Source: Salinispira sp.
Lineage (GTDB): Bacteria; Spirochaetota; Spirochaetia; DSM-27196; Salinispiraceae
Assembly: GCA_965602015.1 (NCBI GenBank)
Contig: OZ271918.1
Coordinates: 1,632,001-1,696,000, forward strand
Direction of reading: 5' to 3'
Length of the DNA stretch: 64,000 bases
The notes under the pieces were generated by a model. It ran no database searches, was not told where the DNA came from, and worked only from the letters and a program-made list of their open reading frames with translations. Both the position numbers and the translations under genes were made by a program. Shown here piece after piece: positions 18,669 through 45,145 of the stretch (within the stretch, counting starts at the first letter, position 1; each line of letters begins with the position of its first letter).

Positions 18669-20033
18669 ATGCCCGTATATGTAAACAGGGTTTTAAACCT
18701 GAAAAAAATTCAGCTCATCGGCTTCGACATGGACTACACCCTGGTTCGCTATCGAACCAGGGAATTTGAGACCCTGGCTCATTCCCAGGCAGCGAGAATC
18801 ATGGTCGAGGACTTCGGATATCCGCCAGAACTGAGAACCTTTGATTTTGACTATAACCGGGCGCTTGTGGGCCTGGTTATCGACACCAGAAACGGCAATC
18901 TGCTCAAACTCAGCCGCTTCGGGAAAGTCAAAAGCGCATACCATGGTCTCCAGGAAATTCACTACCGTGAAGTGAAAAAGCGCTATGCAAATGTGGCGGT
19001 GGAACTGAGGGATCCGGTGTTTATCCCCCTGGACACCAGCTTTGCCATTTCTTACGGTGTTTTATATAGCCAGTTGGTGGAATTCAAACGGAATAATGAC
19101 GCTCTCCCGGACTTCGCGGTAATCGCCCGGGACGTCGGAAGGGCAATTGACCAGGCTCATCGGGACGGATCAATAAAAAACGTCGTCCGCTCTGATTTCG
19201 AACGCTTTGTTATAGAGGATCCCCGGGTGGCCGTGCTTCTCGAGCGCTACAAGAACTACGGCAAAAAACTCATGATCATCACCAACAGCGACTACGAGTA
19301 CACCCGCAGCCTCCTGGATTACGCAATTACCCCCCATCTGAAGCGTCACGAATCATGGAAAGATGTATTTGATATCGTAATTACCTTGGCGGAAAAACCG
19401 AAGTTCTTTCAGGACTCCCGTCGTTTTCTGAGGATCGACCCGGCAACAGGAGCCATGTACAACCACGAAGGGGCGGTGAGCAGCGGGGTGTTTCAAGGCG
19501 GCTGGTTCGGCAAGCTGCAGGACGACCTGGGGCTGCTGGGCAACCAGATTCTCTATTTGGGAGACCATATTTACGGCGATGTTGTGGCAATCAAGAAGCT
19601 CTGCGACTGGAGAACCGGCCTGGTACTGGCCGATCTTGAAAGCGAAATCCACGGCATAGAAAAGGCAAGACCGGTGCAGCAGGAAATCGATCGATTGAGC
19701 CGGGATAAGGCCGCCTTGGAGCGGGAAATTAACGAACTCGATATCGCCGACTACGAGGGACGCGCCACGGACCGCAAGCATTTGGAGACCCTGTTCGAAA
19801 AGATAGAGCGCATAAATGATCAAATCTCCGAGCTGCTCACCCAGTACCGCAGTAATTTTAATCCCTACTGGGGAGAAGTGCTGCGGGCGGGTATGGAGGA
19901 GAGCCGCTACGCCGACCAGCTGGTGAATTATGCCTGCGTGTATATGACAAAGGTTTCCGACCTCTACGAATACAGCCCAAAAACCTATTTCAGGCCCCAA
20001 AGGCGAAGCCTCGCCCATGAACTGGAGTTATAA
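18669..20033 (+). CDS. HAD-IG family 5'-nucleotidase (cN-II-like)
   Basis: GFDMDYTL, ITNS, KPKFF, YLGDHIYGDV. Confidence 0.92.
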   Translation: MPVYVNRVLNLKKIQLIGFDMDYTLVRYRTREFETLAHSQAARIMVEDFGYPPELRTFDFDYNRALVGLVIDTRNGNLLKLSRFGKVKSAYHGLQEIHYREVKKRYANVAVELRDPVFIPLDTSFAISYGVLYSQLVEFKRNNDALPDFAVIARDVGRAIDQAHRDGSIKNVVRSDFERFVIEDPRVAVLLERYKNYGKKLMIITNSDYEYTRSLLDYAITPHLKRHESWKDVFDIVITLAEKPKFFQDSRRFLRIDPATGAMYNHEGAVSSGVFQGGWFGKLQDDLGLLGNQILYLGDHIYGDVVAIKKLCDWRTGLVLADLESEIHGIEKARPVQQEIDRLSRDKAALEREINELDIADYEGRATDRKHLETLFEKIERINDQISELLTQYRSNFNPYWGEVLRAGMEESRYADQLVNYACVYMTKVSDLYEYSPKTYFRPQRRSLAHELEL

Positions 20034-23169: not shown

Positions 23170-23754
23170 TCACATGTAGCGTTCATTGTGGTACTTGAAC
23201 AGACCCTGAAGCACCCGTACCGCGTTGTTCGGAGTAACCGTCGCGCCGGTGTAGGCATCTGCTTCTCCGTGCATCGGTTCGATGGCATTGATGGATTCCT
23301 GGGAAGCTCCGAACAGATTATCCGCAGTGTACATCGCCATTAGTTCCTTGACCGGAGTTCCGTCCCAGCTGACTTCACTGTCGCCGTAAAGACCGCTCTG
23401 ATAGTGGTCAGTTGAATCCATTTCCCAGGAAATATAATCAACGGCGCCGTCGTTCTTGTTCAGTTCGACGTATGCCACCGACCAGTAATTCACCTGCGGG
23501 GCCCTACAGGTACAGGCGATGTAGGCAACCTGGTATTTTACGGTCTCGAGCTGCTCGTATTCGAACAGCACGAAGGCTACCATTTCGGTTTCTTCCCGGT
23601 GACCGTTCACGTGGGTCCAGTAAAAGGCATTATCGACGGTAATGCCCGTCGTTTCCGCCGGCGCCGCTGCCTCCGGGGGAGGAGCCTGTTGACCGCAGCT
23701 GACGGCCAAGGCCACAATAAAAAGCACTATTGAAAAAAATGCAATTTTCTTCAT
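23170..23754 (-). CDS. Lipoprotein with an FMN-binding/flavinylation-like motif and CxC
   Basis: Lipobox AVSC; IACTCR; C-terminal DAYTGATVT matching D-x-x-[ST]-G-A-[ST]. Confidence 0.7.
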   Translation of the reverse strand: MKKIAFFSIVLFIVALAVSCGQQAPPPEAAAPAETTGITVDNAFYWTHVNGHREETEMVAFVLFEYEQLETVKYQVAYIACTCRAPQVNYWSVAYVELNKNDGAVDYISWEMDSTDHYQSGLYGDSEVSWDGTPVKELMAMYTADNLFGASQESINAIEPMHGEADAYTGATVTPNNAVRVLQGLFKYHNERYM

Positions 23755-25779: not shown

Positions 25780-26391
25780 GTGGAAATACTCGAACGACTC
25801 GATAAACACTATTTCGAACAGGGAATGACCCTCCCCGAATATGCCGGAACGACACGGAACTACCGGGGTTTTATCAAGGAACTTATGCTCAGCGCTGATC
25901 CGTTGGAAAGCAGCGTCGAAAAGCTCAAATCGCTTATTGCACCGTTACCGGCCCCGGTGAGAGCCACCGTCAACACCGAAGACTGGTGCGGGGACTGGGC
26001 GTGTAATGCGCCGTTTTTGGGAGAATTATTCAGCCGCTCGGGCATAGAAATGCGGATATTCCGCGGCTCGGAGTTCCCCGCGTTGAAGAAGCGTTATGAA
26101 CGCGACGGTGACGATCACATCCCCGCTGTGAGCCTGTGGGACGGCGAGGGAAACGAGCTCATACGATGGATCGAAGCCCCGGAAAAAGTGTCCGCCATGA
26201 AGGACGAGTGGAAGGCACAGCACAGTGAGTTTATGGAAACCTATCGAAGTAAAGACAGCGATCCTGAGGCAAAAAAAGCCTGGCCGAAGATGTACCGGGA
26301 TTTTATGGAGCTGATGGCAGGGTGGTACCGCGATGGAATGTGGCATGAAATTTCTGCGGAACTTATCGCAGCCTTGGAAGATCGACGATGA
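25780..26391 (+). CDS. Thioredoxin-fold protein (Thioredoxin_9-like)
   Basis: TEDWCGD, HIP (cis-Pro loop), W.E.P; GTG 25780 follows AAGGAG. Confidence 0.75.
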   Translation: MEILERLDKHYFEQGMTLPEYAGTTRNYRGFIKELMLSADPLESSVEKLKSLIAPLPAPVRATVNTEDWCGDWACNAPFLGELFSRSGIEMRIFRGSEFPALKKRYERDGDDHIPAVSLWDGEGNELIRWIEAPEKVSAMKDEWKAQHSEFMETYRSKDSDPEAKKAWPKMYRDFMELMAGWYRDGMWHEISAELIAALEDRR

Positions 26392-27233
26392 TGCAGGGCA
26401 AACGAGTGCTCATAACCGGAGCGAACAGCGGCATTGGATTTGCTACCGCAAAAATCCTGGCAGGCAAGGGGGCGGAGATTATCGCGGCATGCCGCAACCG
26501 GGAACGCGGACAACGGGCTCTGGAAGACATCGCACGTGAGGCTAGGGGACCCGCCCCAAGGCTTCTCGAACTGGATTTAAATTCCCTGTCCTCGGTCAGG
26601 GAGGCTGCAGGCAAAATGCTCGGGGAAAACAACGCCATTGATGTGCTGATCAACAATGCGGGTATAATCCTGCCTCAGCGGGAGCTCAGTGCGGACGGGT
26701 ATGAGTCACAGTTTGCGACCAATCACCTCGGACACTTTCTCCTGACCAGATTGCTGGTTCCACTTTTGGAGAAGGCGGAGTCTGGAAGAATCATAAATCT
26801 TTCATCCGGCGCACATTGGGCGGGCAAAATACATTTTGACGATATAATGCTCGAGGAAAACTATCGTCCGTTTGTTGCGTACAGCCAAAGCAAACTGGCA
26901 AACATCCTGTTCACCCGTTCCCTTGCGTCTGAGCTAAAAGAACGCGGCATTACGGTCAATGCAGTTCATCCCGGATTCGTCCGCAGCAACTTTTCCGGAG
27001 ATCGTAAAACCGGAAAGCAGCCGCTGCTTTTCCGCCTATTGAGCTTTGCCGCCGTATCCAACGAGAAAGGCGCTGAGACCAGTGTATATCTGGCCGAGAG
27101 CCCCGATGTCGCGGGCATAAGCGGTGAATACTTTGCCAAGTGCAAGGTGGCACCGAGCAGCCCACGCAGCAAAGATGTTAAAACCGTCGCCAGGCTTTGG
27201 AAACTCAGTGAAGAACTCTGTAATCTTTCCTGA
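26388..27233 (+). CDS. SDR oxidoreductase (retinol dehydrogenase-like)
   Basis: TGANSGIG, NNAG, NHLGHF, YSQSK, HPG. Confidence 0.92.
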   Translation: MMQGKRVLITGANSGIGFATAKILAGKGAEIIAACRNRERGQRALEDIAREARGPAPRLLELDLNSLSSVREAAGKMLGENNAIDVLINNAGIILPQRELSADGYESQFATNHLGHFLLTRLLVPLLEKAESGRIINLSSGAHWAGKIHFDDIMLEENYRPFVAYSQSKLANILFTRSLASELKERGITVNAVHPGFVRSNFSGDRKTGKQPLLFRLLSFAAVSNEKGAETSVYLAESPDVAGISGEYFAKCKVAPSSPRSKDVKTVARLWKLSEELCNLS

Positions 27234-28069: not shown

Positions 28070-31000
28070 CTATACCAGTTCGAGCACCGCCCCGGCGTAC
28101 GTGAACCCTCCGCCGAACGCCGTGAGTCCAAGGGTCTTTGCTGAAGATGAAGGATCATCGAGTATGCGCTCCAGACAGAGGGGGATGGTCGATGATGACG
28201 TGTTACCGTACACGGCAATCATGGAGTACACTTTTTTCTTGTCGACCTTCATACGCTGACGAACGGCGTTTATTATCCGCTGGTTGGCCTGGTGAGGTAC
28301 AATGAGATCCAGGTCATCGCTTTGGTACCCCGACTGCTCCGCCGCCAGCTCAAGCGACTTTATCATTGCCCGCACCGCCTTTTGGTATACCGCCGGCCCG
28401 TCCATGGTCACCACATCATCGGCATTTCCCTCCACTGCGGGAACGGTCAACGCCCGGTTTCGATCCGCCGCCGCAAGGGTGACCGGCCGGCGGATTATCA
28501 TTTTGGGAACCACATCACCCCCTTCGACGCAAATCAGACTTGCGGTAGCGGCGTCGCCGAATACCGGCGCGGTATCCGGGTCTGAGGTGTCGATTCTGCG
28601 GGAAAGCAATTCAGCGCTGATAATAAGCAGGGGCCGGTTCGCACTATCAGCCTGCATAAAATCATGAGCCTGCTGAAGGGCATAGATGTAGCCCGAGCAG
28701 GCAGCGGAAATATCGACGGCAGGAATTTCAAGCTCTTCATCGCCGGCCAGAGCGTCCAAAACCCGGCAGGCCAACGAGGGGGTTATTTCATCCGGAGTGC
28801 CGGTTGAACAGATTATGCCGCCGAGCTGTGCCGGTGCAATATGCACGTCGCTCAAGAGCTTTTTTGCGGCCTCAACGGCCATCGAGGTAAGGTTCTGGGA
28901 TTCATCGGCCCAAAAGCGGCTGCTGATTCCCGTGCGCTTGACGATGTCCTCGGGGCTCCAGGTGGGACACATTGTGGAGATTTCCTCATTGCTCACCACC
29001 CGCTTGCCGGTGACGCTGCGGACCCCGGCGATTCCCACCCGTTTAGCCGCAGCTGGGCCCGAGGAAGCCGTGCCGGTTTCTGTTGCGCTGTCGGCTTTTC
29101 CGCTGGAGGACAACCGGCGGAAACGGAACTGAATTTTCGGCGTCCCGGGCTCCTCCCGTGTGGGAGGTTTGGGAACCGCCGATGACTCGGTGAGAATCTT
29201 AATTAGCGGTTTACCGACAGCCACCTCATCGCCCTCCTCGGCGATAAAGGAGTCCACGGTGCCGGACATGGGGCTGGCGATTTCTGTAACGGCCTTGTCG
29301 GCTTCCACGCTGGCAACCAGCTGACCTTCTTCGATGACGTCGCCGGGCTTAACCAGATATTCAATTACCGTCACCATCTCATCGGACGGACTCGAGCCGA
29401 TAGCCTCTATGAGGAAACTGCCCTCCTCCGCTGCAATCGCTTTGTCCCACTCAATGCTGCCTCCCAGCAGATCGACTGCGGTTTCGAGTATGCGCTGATA
29501 TGAGGGCAGAACTTCGAGCTGATTGCCGAAGTTACACGGGACATAGGTATCATCGCGGACGACCCGACGGGCTTCGAATCCATCGGAAATAGCTTCAGAT
29601 AATTCTGCCAGCACCTCGGACGCAAAACCCGCAGATTTATTATCCTCATGGGCGATGATGATTTTGCGGGTTTTTTTCACAGACGAGATAACGCAGTCCT
29701 TATCCCAGGGAGAAAGGCTTCTGAGGTCGATGACCTCCGGCTCGACGCCTAATTCTTCAAGGGCGGCGGCGGTTTTGTACATGAGGGCCATGGTGTTCCC
29801 GTAGCCCAGGAGGGTTAAGTCGGAACCGCCTCGAACGATCCGCGCCTTTCCAATGGGTACAAAGTGATCACCGATATCTTCACTGGTTGCCTGAGCCCGA
29901 TCATTGAGACAATTTTTCGGATAATAAAACATGGTCGGTCTCCCCGATGCGAAACTCGCGTTCAACAGACCGGCGGCATCTCCCGCAGTAGAGGGCATCA
30001 CCACATCGACGCCCGGCGTGTGCACTCCCAAGGCCTCAAGACTGGATGCGTGAAAGGGTCCGAGACCGGGCTTGTACCCTCCGGAGGTAATCATGAGAAT
30101 GACCGGCGCCTGCCAGCCTCCATCGCTGCGCCAGTACATGCTGCCCATTTCGGAAAAAATCTGGTTGTACGCTATGGGGAGAAAGTCGGCGAACTGGATA
30201 AATCCTACCGGCCGGCCTCCGGCCAGCGAACGGCCCACGCTTACTCCCGCAATGGTTGATTCGCTCAAGGGGCTGTTCTGAACCCTGCCGGGATAGGCGG
30301 TGCTCAAACCCTTTGTTATGCCGAACACGTCCCCTTTGGGATCTTCAAGATCTTCGCCGAACAGGCTGACCCGTTCATCCTTGCCGAGCTGTAGCCGAAA
30401 AGCTTCCCGTATGGCTTCCAGCATGGTCACCCCGCCGGCGTTCCCGCGGTATTCTACTCTCGCCAGGTATTCCGGATTCAAAGGCGCCTTGGCATCGTGA
30501 ACCGCTGCGGGCTCGGGGCTTCTGCGGCTCGACTCTGCGGCTGCGCGCACCTGTTCGGCAACGTCTTTCTCCAGGGTTTCAAGCTCGGTTTCCGTCCTGC
30601 CCGATTCGATGAGCCGTTTTCTTGTGTGGGCGATGGGATCGCGGGCTTCCCGGACGTTGAGAATATCCTCTGAACTCCGGTAGACGCTCTGATCATCCGC
30701 ATTGGTGTGATTGGTTAGTCTGTCGACCTGGAAAATAACGATGGCGGGCTTGCGGTCATTCCGCATGGCTTCGACAATTTCGAATAGTTGGCTGTGGGCC
30801 GTTGCCAGGTCGCATCCGTCTATTCTATGTATGGGTATGCCGTAAAAGGAGTCCGCCTCTCCCTCAGGTCTTGAAAAAAATGTCTGGCCCCCGGTTTTGG
30901 TGGATATTGCGTAAACATTGTCTTCGATGAAATACAGAACCGGAAGATTCTCCCGTACAGAATGGGCTATGGATTCAAGGACTTCGCCTTCCTGGGTCAT

Positions 31001-31450
31001 ACCGTCGCCCAATGCGCAGAGCACCACCGGCGCACCGTCCCGGTCTTTTACTTCCGCAGCGATTCCCGCCGACGGAAGGGCATTATTCCCTACCGGACCG
31101 ACAAGACTGAGCACGTTGTGTTCCGGTGAGCTGATATGAGCGCTCATCTGTCGTCCCCGGGAATGCGAAGCATCCTTGCAGAACAAGCTGTGAAAAAACA
31201 TCTCGACGCTGACACCGCGGGCGATCATAAGCGCTTTGTCGCGGTAATGGCAGTGCAGCCAGTCCTGAGGTCCAAGAATATCCGCCAGGACGACAGATCC
31301 CTCATGACCCGCACCGGACACATGGAAAAATGCCTCGCCCCGCTTTGTAAAACCGTCCTCTAACCGGTCGAGTTCCCGGGCTTCAAGCATGTGGCGATAT
31401 AACGATATGAGGCGATCCTCAGTCAGATTACCTGATTTTGTTTGACTCAT
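28070..31450 (-). CDS. Fusion of 2-oxoacid dehydrogenase E1alpha, E1beta, lipoyl domain and FabH (KASIII)
   Basis: E1a: SGAGHE, HYRD, GDG-x-EDN ThDP motif, HTNADD..YR. E1b: GDVF..T.GL, SPLSE, QFADF, GPFH, EVIDLRSL.PWD. Lipoyl: VEADKA. FabH: RTGI, AACSGY, FGDAA, HQAN, GNTSS, FGGG. Confidence 0.93.
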   Translation of the reverse strand: MSQTKSGNLTEDRLISLYRHMLEARELDRLEDGFTKRGEAFFHVSGAGHEGSVVLADILGPQDWLHCHYRDKALMIARGVSVEMFFHSLFCKDASHSRGRQMSAHISSPEHNVLSLVGPVGNNALPSAGIAAEVKDRDGAPVVLCALGDGMTQEGEVLESIAHSVRENLPVLYFIEDNVYAISTKTGGQTFFSRPEGEADSFYGIPIHRIDGCDLATAHSQLFEIVEAMRNDRKPAIVIFQVDRLTNHTNADDQSVYRSSEDILNVREARDPIAHTRKRLIESGRTETELETLEKDVAEQVRAAAESSRRSPEPAAVHDAKAPLNPEYLARVEYRGNAGGVTMLEAIREAFRLQLGKDERVSLFGEDLEDPKGDVFGITKGLSTAYPGRVQNSPLSESTIAGVSVGRSLAGGRPVGFIQFADFLPIAYNQIFSEMGSMYWRSDGGWQAPVILMITSGGYKPGLGPFHASSLEALGVHTPGVDVVMPSTAGDAAGLLNASFASGRPTMFYYPKNCLNDRAQATSEDIGDHFVPIGKARIVRGGSDLTLLGYGNTMALMYKTAAALEELGVEPEVIDLRSLSPWDKDCVISSVKKTRKIIIAHEDNKSAGFASEVLAELSEAISDGFEARRVVRDDTYVPCNFGNQLEVLPSYQRILETAVDLLGGSIEWDKAIAAEEGSFLIEAIGSSPSDEMVTVIEYLVKPGDVIEEGQLVASVEADKAVTEIASPMSGTVDSFIAEEGDEVAVGKPLIKILTESSAVPKPPTREEPGTPKIQFRFRRLSSSGKADSATETGTASSGPAAAKRVGIAGVRSVTGKRVVSNEEISTMCPTWSPEDIVKRTGISSRFWADESQNLTSMAVEAAKKLLSDVHIAPAQLGGIICSTGTPDEITPSLACRVLDALAGDEELEIPAVDISAACSGYIYALQQAHDFMQADSANRPLLIISAELLSRRIDTSDPDTAPVFGDAATASLICVEGGDVVPKMIIRRPVTLAAADRNRALTVPAVEGNADDVVTMDGPAVYQKAVRAMIKSLELAAEQSGYQSDDLDLIVPHQANQRIINAVRQRMKVDKKKVYSMIAVYGNTSSSTIPLCLERILDDPSSSAKTLGLTAFGGGFTYAGAVLELV

Positions 31451-31599
31451 CGGTGCTCCTCCAGTGCTATCCGGCTCGGCGCCGGTCCTGGCCAGTATAT
31501 ATGATTGATATAGATAACTTCTACCGATATAACCGAATCTAATTCAGGTAAATAAAAAAATAACTTGATTTGCGACGGAGAATATCGAAGTATTTGGGT

Positions 31600-32310
31600 A
31601 TGACACTAACTTGTCCAAAATGCGGCCGGAGCATAGCCGGCGAAGATATTTCGGTAAAGGACGGTTTCGCCCAATGCGGCACCTGCAGATCGGTATTTAA
31701 TCTTTCCGAACTGGCAGCTCAGCGCGGTAATCGGCAAAGCGAACCAATGCCGTTCGCCCGCAAGTCGGAAGTGGGTATGCCAAAAAACTTCGAGAAGAAA
31801 ACGGATTTTGACGGGCTTACCATTGTGCGGAAATGGCGCGACCTGACGGCATTTATCCTTATTCCATTTTCCATATTTTGGAACGGTTTTTTGGCTGTCT
31901 GGATCAGCATTGCCATCTCCACCGGCGAATATATCATGATTGCCTTCGCATCCATACATATCGCCGCCGGAGTCTTTCTTGTATACAGCGGAATTGCGAA
32001 AATGATCAATCGAACCACGGTAAAGGTTAGCACTGGGGAACTCACGATTACACACGGTCCCGTCCCCTGGCCGTCACCGAAGCCCATTAGTCATCATCAG
32101 GTCCGTCAGGTGTACGGGAAGGAGCGGGTCAGCCGATCGAGCCGAGGCGGCACCAGTGTTCGCTACGAACTTCGTACCCTGACGACAGACGGGCGTGATA
32201 TCAAGTTGCTCAGCGGCTTGAATGACCGAGCGCAAGTTTTATTCCTGGAGCAGGAGATTGAACGCTACTGGAATATCAGCGATGAACGGGTCGGCGGCGA
32301 AATGGTTTGA
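31600..32310 (+). CDS. Zinc-ribbon membrane protein
   Basis: CPKC...CGTC N-terminus, two TM helices, PH-like C-terminus; start at ATG 31600. Confidence 0.7.
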   Translation: MTLTCPKCGRSIAGEDISVKDGFAQCGTCRSVFNLSELAAQRGNRQSEPMPFARKSEVGMPKNFEKKTDFDGLTIVRKWRDLTAFILIPFSIFWNGFLAVWISIAISTGEYIMIAFASIHIAAGVFLVYSGIAKMINRTTVKVSTGELTITHGPVPWPSPKPISHHQVRQVYGKERVSRSSRGGTSVRYELRTLTTDGRDIKLLSGLNDRAQVLFLEQEIERYWNISDERVGGEMV

Positions 32311-34419: not shown

Positions 34420-37011
34420 TTAGTCCTCCTCGGACAACAATAGAAAGCCCTGCACAGCCTGTCCGGTTGTCCTCACTTCTCCAAAGTACGAACCGTCTTG
34501 GCCGTAAATCACGATGACATTTCCCTGCAGAGTATCGAGATACAGCTCTTCATCTTCACCCAGACGGTAAACCGGTACGGGATTTCCCGTGGCATTTATA
34601 AAAAACAGTTCAGCGCTTTGTCCGGAATCATTATAAAAATACAGCCTAACCTCCCGGTTGTTTTCCTGAGAAAAGAAATTCCGGGGGTACTGAGCGAAAA
34701 TCTGGGTGGAATAACCTTCAAATCTGGTTCGGGGACCGCGGAGTTGTCGGGGCTCGTCGGCATCATCGAACAGTTCTGTCAGGCGAATATCCGGGCGGGA
34801 AATAAAATCATCAGTGTCGAGGTCGTCGTTGTCATCCTCGTCGTCGGCTCTGTCGTCGTCATCACCGTCGTCACCGTCCCGGTTGTCATCCTCGGCCTCA
34901 TCGTCGTCATCATCGCCGTCGTCGTCGTCATCGTCCCGGTTATCATCATCGGCGTCACCTCCGACCGGTGCCGCCCGACCGGGATTGGTTCCCGATGAAT
35001 CGTCGGTACCGGCCCTCCCGCCCCGGGCATCAGAATCCGGATCAACTGCAGAGCTTCCCGGCCCGTTTCCCGGCTGAGCAGGACTCAGGGGCCGAGGCCT
35101 GGTTTCTCCGGGCGCCTGCACCCCATCATCGCCGGCGGCCCTGCCCATAGGGGGACGAAGAACCACAACAGCAGGTTTATCCGCCCGATCCTCGCCTGCC
35201 TCGTCCTGAGTGCCTTCGGTACCCGCTATGGGCCGTTCTTCAGAAGAAGATTCCCCGCCTTTGGTGGGCTGATCCTCATTCGCGGCATCACCGGAATCCT
35301 GGGTCGAATCGCCGGGGTTCTGTATTTCAGCTTCGGCTGGCACGACGGCCCCGGCAAGGATCAGGATTTCCCTCACTTGAGCACTTCGCGGGTTTGAGCC
35401 CGCCAGCTGATACGGCGTGCGTCCTTGACGGTTTGGCAGGTTGGGGTCGGCTCCCGCGATTAACAGGGCGCGCACTGATTCAGGATCTCCGCTGATAACC
35501 GCAAAATGGATTACCGAGTTACCCTGGCGGTCCGCCGCAAATACATTCGCCCCATTTTGGAGCAGGATTCGAACTATTTCATTGGACTGCCGTTCTACGG
35601 CATACATCAAGGCTGTCTTCCCAACATCATCACCGATATCTATACGGGGCTGATAATCGAGCACCACATTGACCATGTTCACCCGTTGGCCGATTACTGC
35701 CCGGATCAGCGGACTGGCCCCCTCGTCATCCTGGTAATCGACATCAAATCCGCTGCCGAAGATGATGTCGGCGACTTCCTCATTTCCCCTGAACAGGCTT
35801 CGCGCGAGAATCGGAGCGAGCATCTCTTCCGATGTGCTCAGCGCAGCGCCCTGATCCCGCATGATCCGAGCCTGCGCCGTTAGCCCTGCGGCCTGATCTG
35901 CCGATTGACCCAGGGCAAGGGTAAACGGAGTCATTCCCATGTCGTCAAAACGATTTACTTGTGCACCGCCTTCCAGCAGCAGGGAAAACACGGCGGTAGA
36001 GGGTTGGATTGCGGCGATAAAAATCGGAGTCTGGCGATTGCCATCGGGAATATTTGGATTGGCCCCTGATTGAAGAAGAACCTCAGTTATGCCAGGATCA
36101 TCCCGGCGAACAGCTATGTGCAGCAAACTCCCCTCATTGCCGAGCTGAGGTTCCAGCGCTGCCCCATATTCAATAAGGATTTCCACCCGTTGGCTGTCGA
36201 GCCTTTCCACCGCCTCGACAATCGGCAGCCTGCCGCCACGACCGGGTTCATTTGGATCGGCACCGTTGACCAAAAGAGTCTCCAGTGTTCGTCGCCCATC
36301 CTGAGGCGAAACATCGGGATTCAAACTAAGAAAGAGGGCGCGGTTTCCCTGATTGTCCTCAATACCAATAATTTCAGGACCATCATTATCAATATACAGT
36401 TCCACCAGTTCATAGGCCCCTGCACGGGCGGCGATGTGGAGGGCGCTGTAGCCATTGGTGGTTTCCCGGGCCGACGGGTCGCTCCCGACCAGCATCAACC
36501 TCGCGGCGATGCTGCTCTGGCTGTTGGAAGTCAAGAGATGAAGCAGCGTGCGTCCCCGGCCATCCCGGTGACGGGGGTTTACCCCTGAAGAGAGGAGAAA
36601 CTGCAGCACTTCGAAACGACCGCTTCCCACCGCATAAAAAAGTGAGTTTCGAGAAGCGTTATCGAGGAGATTCACATCGGCCCCTCTGGCGGCCAGGGCT
36701 TCTACCATGTCGAGACGGCCCTTCCCCGCCGCCAAAAGAAGAGGGCTGGCCCCTTGACGGTCCCGCGGATCGGGCTGGGCTCCGCTGTCGAGAAGAAAGA
36801 GGAGGCTTTGAAGCTGATCAAACTCAACCGCAATATGAAGCAGAGCCTGACCGTTGTTTTGGACTGCATTTGGATCACCGCCGTCCCGGATGTACTCCTG
36901 GAGATCCTCGAGGTTTCCCTGTCTCACAGCCCTGACCTCTGCGCTGGCACAGGATGTAATAAACAAGGCGATGAGCGCTACTATTGAAATCGAAAATAAT
37001 CCCTTCTTCAT
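34420..37011 (-). CDS. Ankyrin-repeat lipoprotein with an acidic linker and a VHL-beta-like C-terminal domain
   Basis: Lipobox ITSC; over ten G.TPL/ALH.A...GA.PN ankyrin repeats; Asp-rich tract. Confidence 0.88.
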   Translation of the reverse strand: MKKGLFSISIVALIALFITSCASAEVRAVRQGNLEDLQEYIRDGGDPNAVQNNGQALLHIAVEFDQLQSLLFLLDSGAQPDPRDRQGASPLLLAAGKGRLDMVEALAARGADVNLLDNASRNSLFYAVGSGRFEVLQFLLSSGVNPRHRDGRGRTLLHLLTSNSQSSIAARLMLVGSDPSARETTNGYSALHIAARAGAYELVELYIDNDGPEIIGIEDNQGNRALFLSLNPDVSPQDGRRTLETLLVNGADPNEPGRGGRLPIVEAVERLDSQRVEILIEYGAALEPQLGNEGSLLHIAVRRDDPGITEVLLQSGANPNIPDGNRQTPIFIAAIQPSTAVFSLLLEGGAQVNRFDDMGMTPFTLALGQSADQAAGLTAQARIMRDQGAALSTSEEMLAPILARSLFRGNEEVADIIFGSGFDVDYQDDEGASPLIRAVIGQRVNMVNVVLDYQPRIDIGDDVGKTALMYAVERQSNEIVRILLQNGANVFAADRQGNSVIHFAVISGDPESVRALLIAGADPNLPNRQGRTPYQLAGSNPRSAQVREILILAGAVVPAEAEIQNPGDSTQDSGDAANEDQPTKGGESSSEERPIAGTEGTQDEAGEDRADKPAVVVLRPPMGRAAGDDGVQAPGETRPRPLSPAQPGNGPGSSAVDPDSDARGGRAGTDDSSGTNPGRAAPVGGDADDDNRDDDDDDGDDDDDEAEDDNRDGDDGDDDDRADDEDDNDDLDTDDFISRPDIRLTELFDDADEPRQLRGPRTRFEGYSTQIFAQYPRNFFSQENNREVRLYFYNDSGQSAELFFINATGNPVPVYRLGEDEELYLDTLQGNVIVIYGQDGSYFGEVRTTGQAVQGFLLLSEED
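34800..34955 (-). repeat. Low-complexity (GAC/GAT)n poly-Asp tract
   Basis: Imperfect gtc/atc trinucleotide runs encoding DADDDNRDDDDDDGDDDDDEAEDDNRDGDDGDDDDRADDEDDNDDLDTDD. Confidence 0.85.
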
Positions 37012-37204: not shown

Positions 37205-37675
37205 TTATTTCCTTGAAACGCTGCGGGGCTTTAGATGACTTCTGAGATCACTGACAAGATCTTCAGGCTTTTGACCGTATAACTCCGGCAGGAATGCATC
37301 CGGGATGCGTTCCCCAGGATTGGACTCCCGGGTGTGCGAAGCAGAAGCTGTGCTATCGGAATAGAACCAGCCGATGCGCTGTGTCCTTCCGTCCCGCATG
37401 GTTACGGAGGTAAAGCGCGATACCTTACTCCATGGGACTTCGTAGGTCTTGAAATACACCCGGTAACGAAAAGCGTTCTCGTCAATCTCAAGAAAAGCGC
37501 TGCCGGGTATGAGCTGGATAACAAACATAACCCCTCCAAGCGAGCCGGATATAATTCCAAGCCAGCCCAGAACGGGCTGCTCTGCCCGTATGGTGATTCC
37601 CGCCGAAATGAAGCCAATCATTGCGAGAAACAGCAGCGCGCTGCGGGTTTTTGACGGATGGTATTGTGCTTTCAC
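37205..37675 (-). CDS. Membrane protein with a PH-like domain
   Basis: Two N-terminal TM helices, LEIDENAF.Y...VPWS.V..F pattern. Confidence 0.65.
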   Translation of the reverse strand: MKAQYHPSKTRSALLFLAMIGFISAGITIRAEQPVLGWLGIISGSLGGVMFVIQLIPGSAFLEIDENAFRYRVYFKTYEVPWSKVSRFTSVTMRDGRTQRIGWFYSDSTASASHTRESNPGERIPDAFLPELYGQKPEDLVSDLRSHLKPRSVSRK

Positions 37676-38680: not shown

Positions 38681-39493
38681 TTACCGAACAAGTCTGGGAA
38701 CAACGATGGCGGAAAACTCAGCCTTAATAAAGCGCTCGGTGAAATCAAAAGGACGCGCCATAAACTCGCCGGCATATCGGTGCTCATTCCAGGAGAGCTG
38801 CCACTGGAGTTTGTATACATCCGACAAATGCAGTATTCCATCAGCATAGGCCTGCTGGGAATACTGGGCGGATTGCCCGAAATTCAGGCTCCAGCCCGTG
38901 GCATAGTGAATGCCGAAGCCAAAAAGAACCGTGCGATCACGGAAATGACTGTAGCTCAGTCCTGGACGGGTATAGAGGGACAAATGACCGTTGTACGTAT
39001 TAAAAACTAGCCGACTTTTAAACATAGCCACCCAGTCGCGTCCCGGCAAAAAATCCAGAAGGAATCGGGGGCTTAAATCAGCGATTAGCAAATGCTCGGC
39101 GCGGGCGGAGCTGTCTGCCCATACCCAGTGGTCGTCAGCGTTGAGGATCCAGTCTTCGTCATGCCGGCCACCGATCTGCAGTCGATAAAAGCCGCCGATC
39201 TTGAGATTGGGATGAAGACGATAATAGGCCCCGGCTGTTAATGCGCCATAGCCCAAAAATGCGCTATTTCCGGGAAATTCGCCCCGCAGCTCAAGGTAGG
39301 GATCAAGCTGCCCCCCATCGGCAAGCAAAAGGGTACGAACGCCAAAGCGAAACTCAATGCCGTCAGCCGGGGATTCACCGGTTCCCCCTTCGCTGGCAAA
39401 CAGCGGCATGACTGAGCATGCTACCAGGATTACAACACATAAGGTAAATTTGCGCTTCATATCAATCATAATCAAAGTCCAAAGGATCATCAT
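38681..39493 (-). CDS. Putative outer-membrane beta-barrel protein
   Basis: Signal peptide and alternating aromatic/polar beta-strand pattern; the true start may be 39460. Confidence 0.55.
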   Translation of the reverse strand: MMILWTLIMIDMKRKFTLCVVILVACSVMPLFASEGGTGESPADGIEFRFGVRTLLLADGGQLDPYLELRGEFPGNSAFLGYGALTAGAYYRLHPNLKIGGFYRLQIGGRHDEDWILNADDHWVWADSSARAEHLLIADLSPRFLLDFLPGRDWVAMFKSRLVFNTYNGHLSLYTRPGLSYSHFRDRTVLFGFGIHYATGWSLNFGQSAQYSQQAYADGILHLSDVYKLQWQLSWNEHRYAGEFMARPFDFTERFIKAEFSAIVVPRLVR

Positions 39494-43561: not shown

Positions 43562-45145
43562 TTATTGCCTGGAGATCATGGAACGATAATAAGATAAAAG
43601 GTCCCTGCACACGTCGTCATCAACGTTTATGCAGCGCTCTTCAAGAAAAGCGGAGAACGTGCGGATCTCCTCTTCTCCCCCCTTTGCCGGCACATAGGTT
43701 TGCATCGACCTGTCGGGAAACAAGCGCTGAGTGGCGGGGCCCTCAAATAGCTTGATGCAGTTCCTATTGCGCTGATCCTTGCCTATGGTCTCATACAGGG
43801 AAGAAACAATTAAGCGGTGACCTTCTATCAGCTGAAGAAACGTACCGTTCGCAAAAATGAGCAAACCGGTGACCAGGTTATCGTGATTCTTTTCAGCGAA
43901 TTCCCGGCTGAGCTGTTGAAAACGAAGCAGATCCATTTCGGCCGCGGCTTCACTTTGATACATGAGCTGGTAAAGATCCTCATTTTTGCGGATGAGCGGA
44001 AGGCCGATTCCCACGGAAGTCCCGCGGTGCTCGGTACTCCGGATGGAGAAGGTCCCGTTCTGCTTTTTTATAAAATCCTTTACGAGGCCAAGCCCCAGAC
44101 CACTACCCATTTCCCGGTTGGTGCCCCGGGTTGACCGTAGGACCCCGTCGCCCAGAATTTGATCGATCACCTTCTGTGGCATGCCCACCCCCGTGTCGTT
44201 GACGGTGATTACACAGCCATCGTCGTTAATTTCATCTCGTACGGAAATGCTTCCGCCGTTTTCTGTGAACTTTACCGCGTTGGACAGAAGGTTGCGCGCC
44301 GCGGTGGCAAACATGTTTCGGTCTCCTACCAGTCGCAGAGCAGGGTCTATTTCATTGTGAAATTTGATGGCCTTATTCCGGGCCGCATCGATGAGCAGTT
44401 CCCAGGAGTTTGCGAATATTTTTGCCGGATCCACGGCCTGAAAGCGTGGTTCGAGGCGCTGATCCTGGCTTCTTACCCACTGAAGAAGTTGGGTAATTAT
44501 TTTTTGGGTATTGTCCGCCGAGGAACGCACGTGGCTGAGATTCTCCTTGAGCTCGGAAACGCTCAGGCTGTCGGCTTCACTGTCCAGCAGCTCAGCGAAC
44601 TGGGACAGGGTTGCCAAGGGGGCCCGGACGTCATGAGCGATAACGCTTAGCAGCCGGTCGCGTACGGCGGTGGACCGCTCGAGGGATGTTACCTGTTCCC
44701 TCAGCGCTGCCTCTGTTGACACCTGCTGCGTCAGGTCTATGGTCACCCCGGCAAGATATTTTCCGCCAGTGTCTGAGAGAGGAAACTTAAACGAAAGAAA
44801 ATGCTTTTGGTCCGGTCCGGTTCCCACAGACTCGATAACCTTCACAGTGTTCTGTGATGCGAGTACTTCGCGGTCATTGGCAACTATGGTTTCGGCCACA
44901 TTAGAGGGGAAAATATCCCCAGCAGCCTTGCCGCGCCAATCAGAGCGGTCTATTGAGAAATACCGCTCAAATGCGGGGTTCATGTATATCAGGCGATGAT
45001 CCGAATCCTTAATCCAGGCGAGCCCGGGCATTTCTTCAAGAATGGCGCGAAATCTACGTGCTTCTTCCCGGGCCTCGGCAAGTTCTCGCCGCAGCTCGCC
45101 TATATCGGCTGACTGGCCCGATTCACCGTTCTGTTTTTTTTTCAT
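43562..45145 (-). CDS. PAS-HisKA-HATPase sensor kinase with a C-terminal BLUF domain
   Basis: PAS (WIKD...YMN); IAHDVRAPL; RNLLSNAVKFT, DTGVGM, GSGLGL; BLUF LMYQS...KN...VTGLL...FLQLIEG...RLF..RSM. Confidence 0.88.
   Translation of the reverse strand: MKKKQNGESGQSADIGELRRELAEAREEARRFRAILEEMPGLAWIKDSDHRLIYMNPAFERYFSIDRSDWRGKAAGDIFPSNVAETIVANDREVLASQNTVKVIESVGTGPDQKHFLSFKFPLSDTGGKYLAGVTIDLTQQVSTEAALREQVTSLERSTAVRDRLLSVIAHDVRAPLATLSQFAELLDSEADSLSVSELKENLSHVRSSADNTQKIITQLLQWVRSQDQRLEPRFQAVDPAKIFANSWELLIDAARNKAIKFHNEIDPALRLVGDRNMFATAARNLLSNAVKFTENGGSISVRDEINDDGCVITVNDTGVGMPQKVIDQILGDGVLRSTRGTNREMGSGLGLGLVKDFIKKQNGTFSIRSTEHRGTSVGIGLPLIRKNEDLYQLMYQSEAAAEMDLLRFQQLSREFAEKNHDNLVTGLLIFANGTFLQLIEGHRLIVSSLYETIGKDQRNRNCIKLFEGPATQRLFPDRSMQTYVPAKGGEEEIRTFSAFLEERCINVDDDVCRDLLSYYRSMISRQ

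Follow-up and report, generated by a model that had tools for sequence, protein, structure and literature searches.

Results

The fusion gene and its product

The window analysed here, a 64,000-nucleotide stretch of the genome of a Salinispira species (Spirochaetota; assembly GCA_965602015.1, contig OZ271918.1, positions 1,632,001 to 1,696,000), carries a gene that joins the E1 part of a putative branched-chain 2-oxoacid dehydrogenase (BCKDH) to a β-ketoacyl-acyl carrier protein synthase of type III (KAS III, or FabH). The gene (28070-31450, reverse strand) is a single unbroken open reading frame (ORF) of 1126 aa in which E1α, E1β, a lipoyl domain and KAS III follow one another in one chain. 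The Pfam matches are E1_dh (residues 19-315), Transket_pyr (341-515), Transketolase_C (534-640), Biotin_lipoyl (693-752), ACP_syn_III (913-973) and ACP_syn_III_C (1038-1124), and the same scan gave no match to the E2 core (PF00198), the E3-binding domain (PF02817) or the acyl carrier protein (ACP, PF00550). An earlier interpretation made from the letters alone, hereafter the sequence-only reading, had described this E1α-E1β-lipoyl-FabH chain without an E2 domain, and the ORF and Pfam results bear it out; the motifs that it had named (GDG...EDN, EADKA, AACSG, HQAN and GNTSS) all lie where it had placed them. The features of the gene are as follows:

28070..31450 (-): whole fusion gene, E1α-E1β-lipoyl-KAS III, 1126 aa (ORF and Pfam)
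30506..31396 (-): E1α, residues 19-315, with the thiamine diphosphate (ThDP) motif GDG (at 148)...EDN (at 176) and catalytic H248 (PF00676, E 3.9e-39; best PDB matches 1um9_A and 1dtw_A, BCKDH E1α)
31145..31156 (-): GRQM substrate-pocket motif, residues 99-102, common to Thermus and human BCKDH E1α (alignment)
29465..30430 (-): E1β, residues 341-662, E397 and H467 conserved (PF02779, PF02780; best PDB match 1um9_B, E 4.6e-58)
29192..29419 (-): lipoyl domain, residues 678-753 (PF00364, E 2.8e-16; all-beta fold, high pLDDT)
29294..29296 (-): K719 in EADKA, predicted lipoylation site (invariant in 148/148 and 87/87 alignment rows)
29132..29170 (-): post-lipoyl motif KPxTRExPGxPxI, residues 761-773 (conserved; ordered in the model)
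29045..29125 (-): variable Ala/Ser/Pro/Thr linker, about residues 776-802 (pLDDT <50 at 780-801)
28073..29044 (-): KAS III (FabH-type), residues 803-1126 (NF006829, 263.5 bits; cut-off 249)
28697-28699 (-): C918 (AACSG), triad Cys
28292-28294 (-): H1053 (HQAN), triad His
28202-28204 (-): N1083 (GNTSS), triad Asn
28946..28948 (-): D835, at the position of W32 in E. coli FabH (alignment)
28577..28579 (-): P958, at the position of R151 in E. coli FabH (alignment)

An AlphaFold model built from a 148-row alignment had a mean pLDDT of 91.6 and a pTM of 0.72, with values below 50 only at residues 1-4 and 780-801. The flexible Pro/Ser/Thr/Ala linker proposed earlier thus holds for about residues 776-802, and the stretch 774-803 varies from 16 to 45 residues among homologues; it does not hold for residues 761-773, a conserved, ordered motif that could serve in docking of the lipoyl arm or in E3 binding. 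When the model was searched with Foldseek, its domains separately matched structures of FabH and of BCKDH E1β; no chain among those listed spanned the whole fusion (best query TM-score 0.46). Docking of the lipoyl domain to the KAS III dimer by complex prediction gave no answer (score 0.00) and weighs neither way.

Contigs from two sequencing runs of one sample (X1 and X2), which are probably this DNA's own source and not independent of it, cross the whole ORF with 0 differences, and 119/119 other top matches share the six Pfam families. These two results settle the question of a misassembly, raised in the sequence-only reading, in favour of a genuine fusion.

The fused KAS III domain lacks the coenzyme A clamp

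In E. coli FabH the adenine of coenzyme A (CoA) is sandwiched by W32 and R151 (PMC4606726). When E. coli FabH from NC_000913.3 was used as the alignment reference, W32 was found in 0/227 and R151 in 0/227 lipoyl-fused KAS III domains, with Asp at the W32 position in 183, and this result holds ungapped or within ±1 residue. The count leaves out 46 fragments without a lipoyl match and places a frameshifted fusion piece (L070) in the fused group. Each residue was present in 40/45 stand-alone KAS III controls. Among representatives of less than 60% identity the fused domains again had neither residue (0/67 for both), and the stand-alone domains had W32 in 22/26 and R151 in 21/26. A second set centred on Pontiellaceae gave 0/117 for both positions (120 proteins, 3 of them without the ketosynthase (KS) end). 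The fused KAS III therefore lacks both residues that stack on the CoA adenine throughout the main clade.

The remainder of the active site is kept. The Cys-His-Asn triad is invariant in the 226 fused rows scored, and the decarboxylation residues H244 and N274 are invariant in all fused domains scored. R249 of FabH, which has a role in ACP binding and corresponds to R1058 of the fusion, is retained in 224/227, and R36 in 194/227. The domain scores 228.4 bits against TIGR00747, under the cut-off of 292.1, and 263.5 bits against NF006829, over the cut-off of 249. As a member of the FabH/KAS III family it has the thiolase fold and the triad, and it lacks the W32/R151 clamp and falls short of the TIGR00747 threshold.

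A change from F87 to Thr might indicate that the acyl pocket is wider, but this was set aside as weak, for Thr is found in 211/227 fused domains but also in 22/67 short relatives; in the review that was searched, no passage on F87 to Thr was found.

The E1 domains are of the branched-chain type

The best solved relatives of the E1α domain are the BCKDH structures 1um9_A from Thermus (2.6e-41) and 1dtw_A from human (1.1e-29), followed by human pyruvate dehydrogenase (PDH) α at about 1e-20. Such scores alone do not settle specificity because the BCKDH of P. putida scores under PDH, at 4e-14. The GRQM motif is aligned with 1um9_A and 1dtw_A, and the host's own acetoin-type E1α has GKGGSMH there. 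GRQM is present in 120/120 near homologues, and a variant of it in 35/35 divergent full-length representatives. In trees the E1 of the fusion groups with BCKDH against the PDH and acetoin-type E1 of the host, with a support of 1.0 for E1α and 0.859 for E1β. By motif and tree, and not by activity, the E1 is of the BCKDH type, in agreement with the branched-chain assignment made earlier. As a predicted 2-oxoacid dehydrogenase of this kind the protein has the ThDP motif of E1α/E1β, the catalytic His and Glu, the BCKDH-type pocket and the lipoyl acceptor Lys, lipoylation itself being predicted; as a BCKDH complex it lacks a cognate E2 core and E3-binding domain.

Spread of the fusion

The 119 best other matches share 53-78% identity with the protein and are named after one domain ('2-oxoisovalerate dehydrogenase E1 component', 'beta-ketoacyl-ACP synthase 3'), so that similar fusions do sit in databases under automatic names, as had been suspected. 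The best 80 of 153 confirmed genome loci are mostly from Spirochaetota, with others from Planctomycetota, Verrucomicrobia, Fibrobacterales, Sumerlaeota and Hydrogenedentota. Among the matches listed, the nearest locus bears an uncultured Salinispira label (73%). Among 151 genomes of the host's class that are at least 95% complete, the fusion was found in 41 (38 with single-frame E1 and KS, 2 partial, 1 frameshifted), and four more matches were conventional operons. When genomes were drawn evenly from the entire phylum and a stricter threshold was applied, the count was 8/401. In the phylum of a Verrucomicrobia record (G405) the full fusion was present in 17/201 genomes, with one more split over two contigs. 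Cultured carriers include Pontiella, Rarispira pelagica and Marinobacter halodurans. None of the 922 plasmid records with a match covers 80% of the fusion protein.

The neighbours that recur in the 80 loci are housekeeping genes (aconitase 52, NeuB 38, SerRS 28). They were set aside because they resemble lineage synteny; around the gene of the window no aconitase-type neighbourhood is seen.

KAS III occupies the position of the E2 core

In a sample of Verrucomicrobiota, 26 genomes encode a relative of 1013-1140 aa with about 35% identity. Twelve of these relatives were retrieved, and the 11 that were scanned all have the order E1α-E1β-lipoyl-PF00198 (11/11). The C-terminal motif of the 12 E2-core fusions is DHR in 11 and DHK in 1. 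Loci L175-L188, from the same phylum, hold such single-chain E1α-E1β-lipoyl-E2 proteins (1014-1129 aa), which amount to a BCKDH-type complex minus only E3; in L175 and L176 the gene adjoins G6PD/OpcA genes.

A second comparison comes from P0451 and P0454 (an Opitutaceae metagenome-assembled genome), stand-alone proteins of 511 and 534 aa with the order lipoyl, E3-binding, KAS III, which makes them E2-like subunits whose core is a ketosynthase; P0442 and P0443 have the order lipoyl, KAS III. These four were the only short lipoyl-KAS III matches with a whole lipoyl domain at the start. Most of the others were rejected as split genes, since several of the 11 that were read start in E1β remnants or in the middle of the lipoyl domain. 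KAS III in the fusion therefore sits in the E2 position: the corresponding slot of the related family is filled by an E2 core, and lipoyl-E3-binding-KAS III proteins exist.

In FastTree phylogenies, in which supports are bipartition values and which give relationship and not the order of events, the main family forms one clade with support 1.0 in each of the E1α (28/46 rows), E1β (37/57) and KS (28/60) trees. The E1 of the E2-core fusions groups with Streptomyces E1αβ encoded upstream of lipoyl-E2-ACP-KS loading modules (0.956 and 0.969), and these together join the KS fusions in a fused-E1αβ clade (E1α 0.987, E1β 0.734). Two full-length proteins, P0441 and P0446, the latter from the cyanobacterium Anthocerotibacter panamensis, fall outside the main clade in the E1α and KS trees; therefore either a second, deep lineage of the architecture exists or it has arisen twice. 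P0446 is thus a cyanobacterial four-domain fusion of a separate lineage, with W32 kept.

Genes of the host

The host encodes a PDH (E1α, E1β, E2 and E3, with an LplA-like ligase upstream), a 2-oxoglutarate dehydrogenase (OGDH; E1, E2 and E3) and a third, acetoin/pyruvate-type cluster (E1α-E1β-E2), and its three E2 genes belong to these clusters. LipA, ACP, FabF and FabG are encoded as well, together with a FabD-like gene, and besides the fusion there are three KAS III, of which two are canonical FabH and the third is divergent; the score of an IlvC-like gene was below the cut-off. No other αβ-type E1 came from the host E1 searches and no conventional BCKDH operon was seen among the host's E1 and E2 matches; therefore no conventional BCKDH was found. 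All the parts of the proposed cycle that would act in trans are thus encoded in the host, as the sequence-only reading expected for E3 and ACP. Of the separate genes that it proposed to look for, those for lipoylation and E3 are present, and so are three E2 and two canonical FabH.

The third KAS III of the host (L103:1020-6441, G000) also lacks W32 and R151, and ends a run of genes for a CoA-transferase, a thiolase, an alpha/beta hydrolase and a TetR-like protein.

Gene neighbourhood in the window

The fusion gene is apparently a stand-alone transcription unit, with a divergent upstream neighbour and a convergent downstream nth. Promoter and terminator counts are near chance (5 vs 2.8 ± 1.8 and 6 vs 4.9 ± 2.4). 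No E2, E3, ACP or fab gene was found among the 24 neighbouring ORFs scanned (14.7-45.1 kb of the window), which confirms an earlier claim, and every whole-genome match for lipoyl domains, KAS III, E2, ACP, FabF and FabD is located outside the window. The neighbouring short-chain dehydrogenase/reductase (26388-27233) scores best against PRK06197, not FabG. Other genes of the window are as follows:

18669-20033 (+): cN-II-type 5'-nucleotidase (PF05761, E 2e-145), after an M16 peptidase gene
34420-37011 (-): 863-aa ankyrin-repeat protein with many repeats, family matches all below cut-off
43562-45145 (-): PAS-histidine kinase with a BLUF blue-light domain at its C-terminus (residues 391-482)
31570-32310 (+), divergent from the fusion gene, and 23170-23754 (-), 37205-37675 (-) and 38681-39493 (-): ORFs of 156-270 aa without a Pfam match

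Discussion

Proposed mechanism

The fusion is real and widespread, and from its residues a mechanism can be proposed that is likely. Loss of W32 and R151 in the KAS III domain suggests that branched fatty acids are likely started from keto acids without a CoA intermediate. We place somewhat more belief than doubt in the proposal that the protein is a 2-oxoacid dehydrogenase with KAS III in the place of the E2 core, which would convert branched 2-oxoacids to branched 3-oxoacyl-ACP primers without an acyl-CoA step. From the anatomy and the residues observed we infer every catalytic step, the substrate and the product. The ThDP-dependent E1 would decarboxylate 2-oxoisocaproate, 2-oxo-3-methylvalerate or 2-oxoisovalerate and reductively acylate the lipoyl group on K719. 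By thioester exchange the acyl-lipoyl arm, possibly entering through the pantetheine tunnel, would then pass its acyl group to C918; malonyl-ACP would be decarboxylated at H1053/N1083 and condensed with it, and type II fatty acid synthesis would extend the condensation product to iso and anteiso acids. Acting in trans, E3 from PDH or OGDH would reoxidise the dihydrolipoyl arm. Since E1 (α2β2) and FabH are each two-fold symmetric, the protein is predicted to form a homodimer. The direct hand-off from lipoyl to FabH, which was the central idea of the sequence-only reading, gains comparative support from the loss of W32/R151, the E2-slot position and the lipoyl-E3-binding-KAS III proteins.

The lipids of carriers and their relatives are consistent with branched products. 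Isobutyryl primers lead to even iso acids and isovaleryl primers to odd iso acids (PMC13011478). Pontiella desulfatans and P. sulfatireligans, both carriers, have i-C12:0, i-C14:0 and i-C18:0 as major acids (PMC7356697), and the Pontiella group has a GRRMPAF-type motif in 114/120, where spirochaete carriers retain GRQMxAH. One carrier protein is labelled 'unclassified Oceanispirochaeta', and iso-C13:0 and iso-C15:0 are major in Oceanispirochaeta M1/M2 (PMC11129491). For Salinispira pacifica, a comparison at genus level only, iso-C15:0 (11.7%), anteiso-C15:0 (4.3%), iso-C13:0 (2.1%) and iso-C14:0 (1.6%) are reported (PMC4511686).

With marginally less assurance, we lean towards a wider view in which lipoamide joins CoA and ACP as a third donor of the acyl groups that start fatty acids. 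It would define a widespread class of 2-oxoacid dehydrogenases that have a ketosynthase as E2 core, built as the four-domain fusion or with a subunit of the order lipoyl, E3-binding, KAS III. The class may have arisen more than once and would provide the sole KAS III of some bacteria; the E1 pocket variant, GRQMxAH or GRRMPAF, would set odd versus even iso acids.

Evidence that weighs against the proposal

Several observations count against a CoA-free route to branched primers. The lipid match covers three lineages, without negative controls, and the genes next to the fusion bear no relation to lipid synthesis in the 80 loci. The first stand-alone control set was biased to top TIGR00747 scorers, that is to canonical FabH, and the clamp count was therefore repeated on library-wide representatives picked by likeness to the fused domain, with a full KS in 118/137 new proteins. 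The repeat counts for the proposal: the 50 lipoyl-bearing proteins had W in 2, R in 3 and both in 0, and the 67 short proteins without a lipoyl match had W in 50 and R in 46; several of the exceptions among the short proteins are placed within the fusion clade and may be fragments. Against it, Tyr/Arg stand at the clamp positions of P0443 and P0451, which could still grip CoA, and W32 is retained in the second lineage, in P0441 as well as P0446. At the position of T28, four residues ahead of W32, a Trp is present in 170/227 fused domains and in 117/117 of the Pontiella set, and this residue might stack on or fill the adenine site in place of W32.

The genomes of carriers also leave other sources open. 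All 41 carriers in the class sample have an E2 core. Four POR-family matches in the host are a possible other source of branched acyl-CoA, which Pfor4 of C. thermocellum makes by such a route (PMC13011478). Canonical FabH is kept in 9/10 carriers checked (4/5 and 5/5); G345 and G417 are the exceptions found, and the fusion as their sole PF08541 match counts for the proposal. A genome of the same genus (G332) has the fusion in three frames (L091:7823-11315), together with a second, incomplete copy whose frame changes three times (L204:3698-5887). The ilvC of this genome is also split, and assembly error is therefore indicated, not proven; if the breaks were real and iso acids were made there, the fusion would not be their only source.

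Alternative explanations

The alternative that survives best, although we consider it unlikely, keeps the CoA-free hand-off from lipoyl to KS and changes the substrate and product, to pyruvate or 2-oxobutyrate for straight-chain priming or to a specialised lipid or polyketide. Two genomes that are not closed (G345, 99% complete, and G417, 96%) have the fusion as their only PF08541 match, together with FabF-like, FabD-like and LipA genes, and a sole KAS III could mean general priming. The fusion has a patchy distribution over phyla, and its carriers include Marinobacter halodurans and a cyanobacterium, whose groups are mostly straight-chain. Related E1αβ genes load polyketide synthase (PKS) and nonribosomal peptide synthetase (NRPS) lines in Streptomyces, and one 1942-aa protein (P0390) runs on from the four domains into a ketoreductase and ACP, like a self-priming PKS module. 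However, the E1α pocket is of the BCKDH type and both E1 domains group with BCKDH, PDH and two canonical FabH are already encoded in the host, and no biosynthetic cluster recurs around the 80 loci.

Less probable still is a fusion of convenience, in which the lipoyl arm would visit the E2 of PDH, OGDH or the acetoin-type complex, acyl-CoA would be freed, and the fused KAS III would use it as in Bacillus. An E2 core is present in 41/41 carriers of the class sample (99/151 genomes overall) and no carrier without any E2 was found among the 41, so genome content by itself leaves room for an E2 in trans; an E2 would, however, be expected in carriers if E3 and lipoylation come with PDH or OGDH. Retention of R36 and R249, the upstream Trp that could stand in for W32, and the W32 or R151 of some divergent members also favour this explanation. 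Against it, the main clade lacks both adenine-stacking residues, the sole full E2 core of G159 and of G230 lies in a PDH-type operon, and the lipoyl-E3-binding-KAS III proteins put the KS exactly at the E2-core position.

We give an equally low probability to a KAS III that is an acyl transferase only, from lipoamide to holo-ACP (with FabF performing the first condensation) or to CoA as an E2 substitute in amino-acid catabolism: the domain does sit in the acyltransferase slot, and acylating activity has been reported for some KAS III enzymes (PMC4578411), but the decarboxylation residues are invariant, and transfer to CoA is disfavoured because W32 and R151 are lost.

If the proposed CoA-free synthesis of branched primers is correct, the chemistry would be new for two enzymes of the textbooks: lipoamide would supply the acyl group to a ketosynthase, and a 2-oxoacid dehydrogenase would need neither E2 nor CoA. 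Such synthesis would account for the iso and anteiso lipids of free-living spirochaetes, Kiritimatiellia and other Planctomycetes-Verrucomicrobia-Chlamydiae (PVC) bacteria, and lipid priming would be uncoupled from the acyl-CoA pool. A one-gene source of branched primers would be useful for the engineering of branched biofuels and lipids, for which a bkd operon and a foreign FabH are used at present (PMC6461809).

Comparison with known systems

Literature searches, from which most subscription journals are missing, gave no description of the fusion or of direct transfer from lipoyl to KAS III. In the canonical route the branched acyl group passes via E2 and acyl-CoA to FabH (PMC6461809, PMC13011478). 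The Bacillus-type system of BCKDH (BkdAA/BkdAB/BkdB/LpdV) and FabH resembles the fusion in its BCKDH-type E1α/E1β, its lipoyl carrier, its Cys-His-Asn KAS III and the same predicted branched 3-oxoacyl-ACP (PMC6461809, PMC13011478). The fusion differs in being one chain, without an E2 core or E3-binding domain, in a KAS III without W32/R151, and in an E3 that would come from another complex.

Photorhabdus laumondii BkdABC (plu1883-1885), a 'Bkd with ketosynthase', likewise combines a Bkd E1 with a dedicated ketosynthase. It is needed for iso-fatty acids and is said to form a 5-methyl-3-oxohexanoyl thioester (bioRxiv 10.1101/2022.10.20.513026, PMC4578411, PMC8248439). Compared by description only, it differs in having three genes and an ACP domain in BkdB, which the fusion lacks (PMC4578411); because this ACP domain needs the phosphopantetheinyl transferase NgrA, the acyl group in Photorhabdus would pass through phosphopantetheine.

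The PKS/NRPS loading systems of Streptomyces (NZ_CP061282.1, NZ_CP108424.1) have a related fused E1αβ, with 35-38% identity over the match, and we take their loading module to be like SnaF/SnaE1 of streptogramin A. By architecture, the acyl group there stays protein-bound from E1 to the ketosynthase, as proposed for the fusion. In contrast to the fusion, these systems have an E2 acyltransferase and ACP between the lipoyl domain and the KS, the KS is of type I, and the product is a secondary metabolite. The Verrucomicrobiota fusions agree in the identity and order of the first three domains and have a related E1 lineage, and differ in the last domain, which is PF00198 with DHR/DHK and not KAS III; no characterisation of them was met with, although no search was aimed at one. 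Canonical FabH (E. coli; TIGR00747) shares the fold, C112/H244/N274 and R249 with the fused domain, which differs in W32 to Asp, R151 to Pro and F87 to Thr, in its score below the TIGR00747 cut-off and in its tether to a lipoyl domain. Protein-bound channelling of branched starters thus has precedent in Photorhabdus BkdABC and the Streptomyces loading modules, both with an ACP step, and is known; what appears new here is KAS III replacing the E2 core in a fused BCKDH-type chain.

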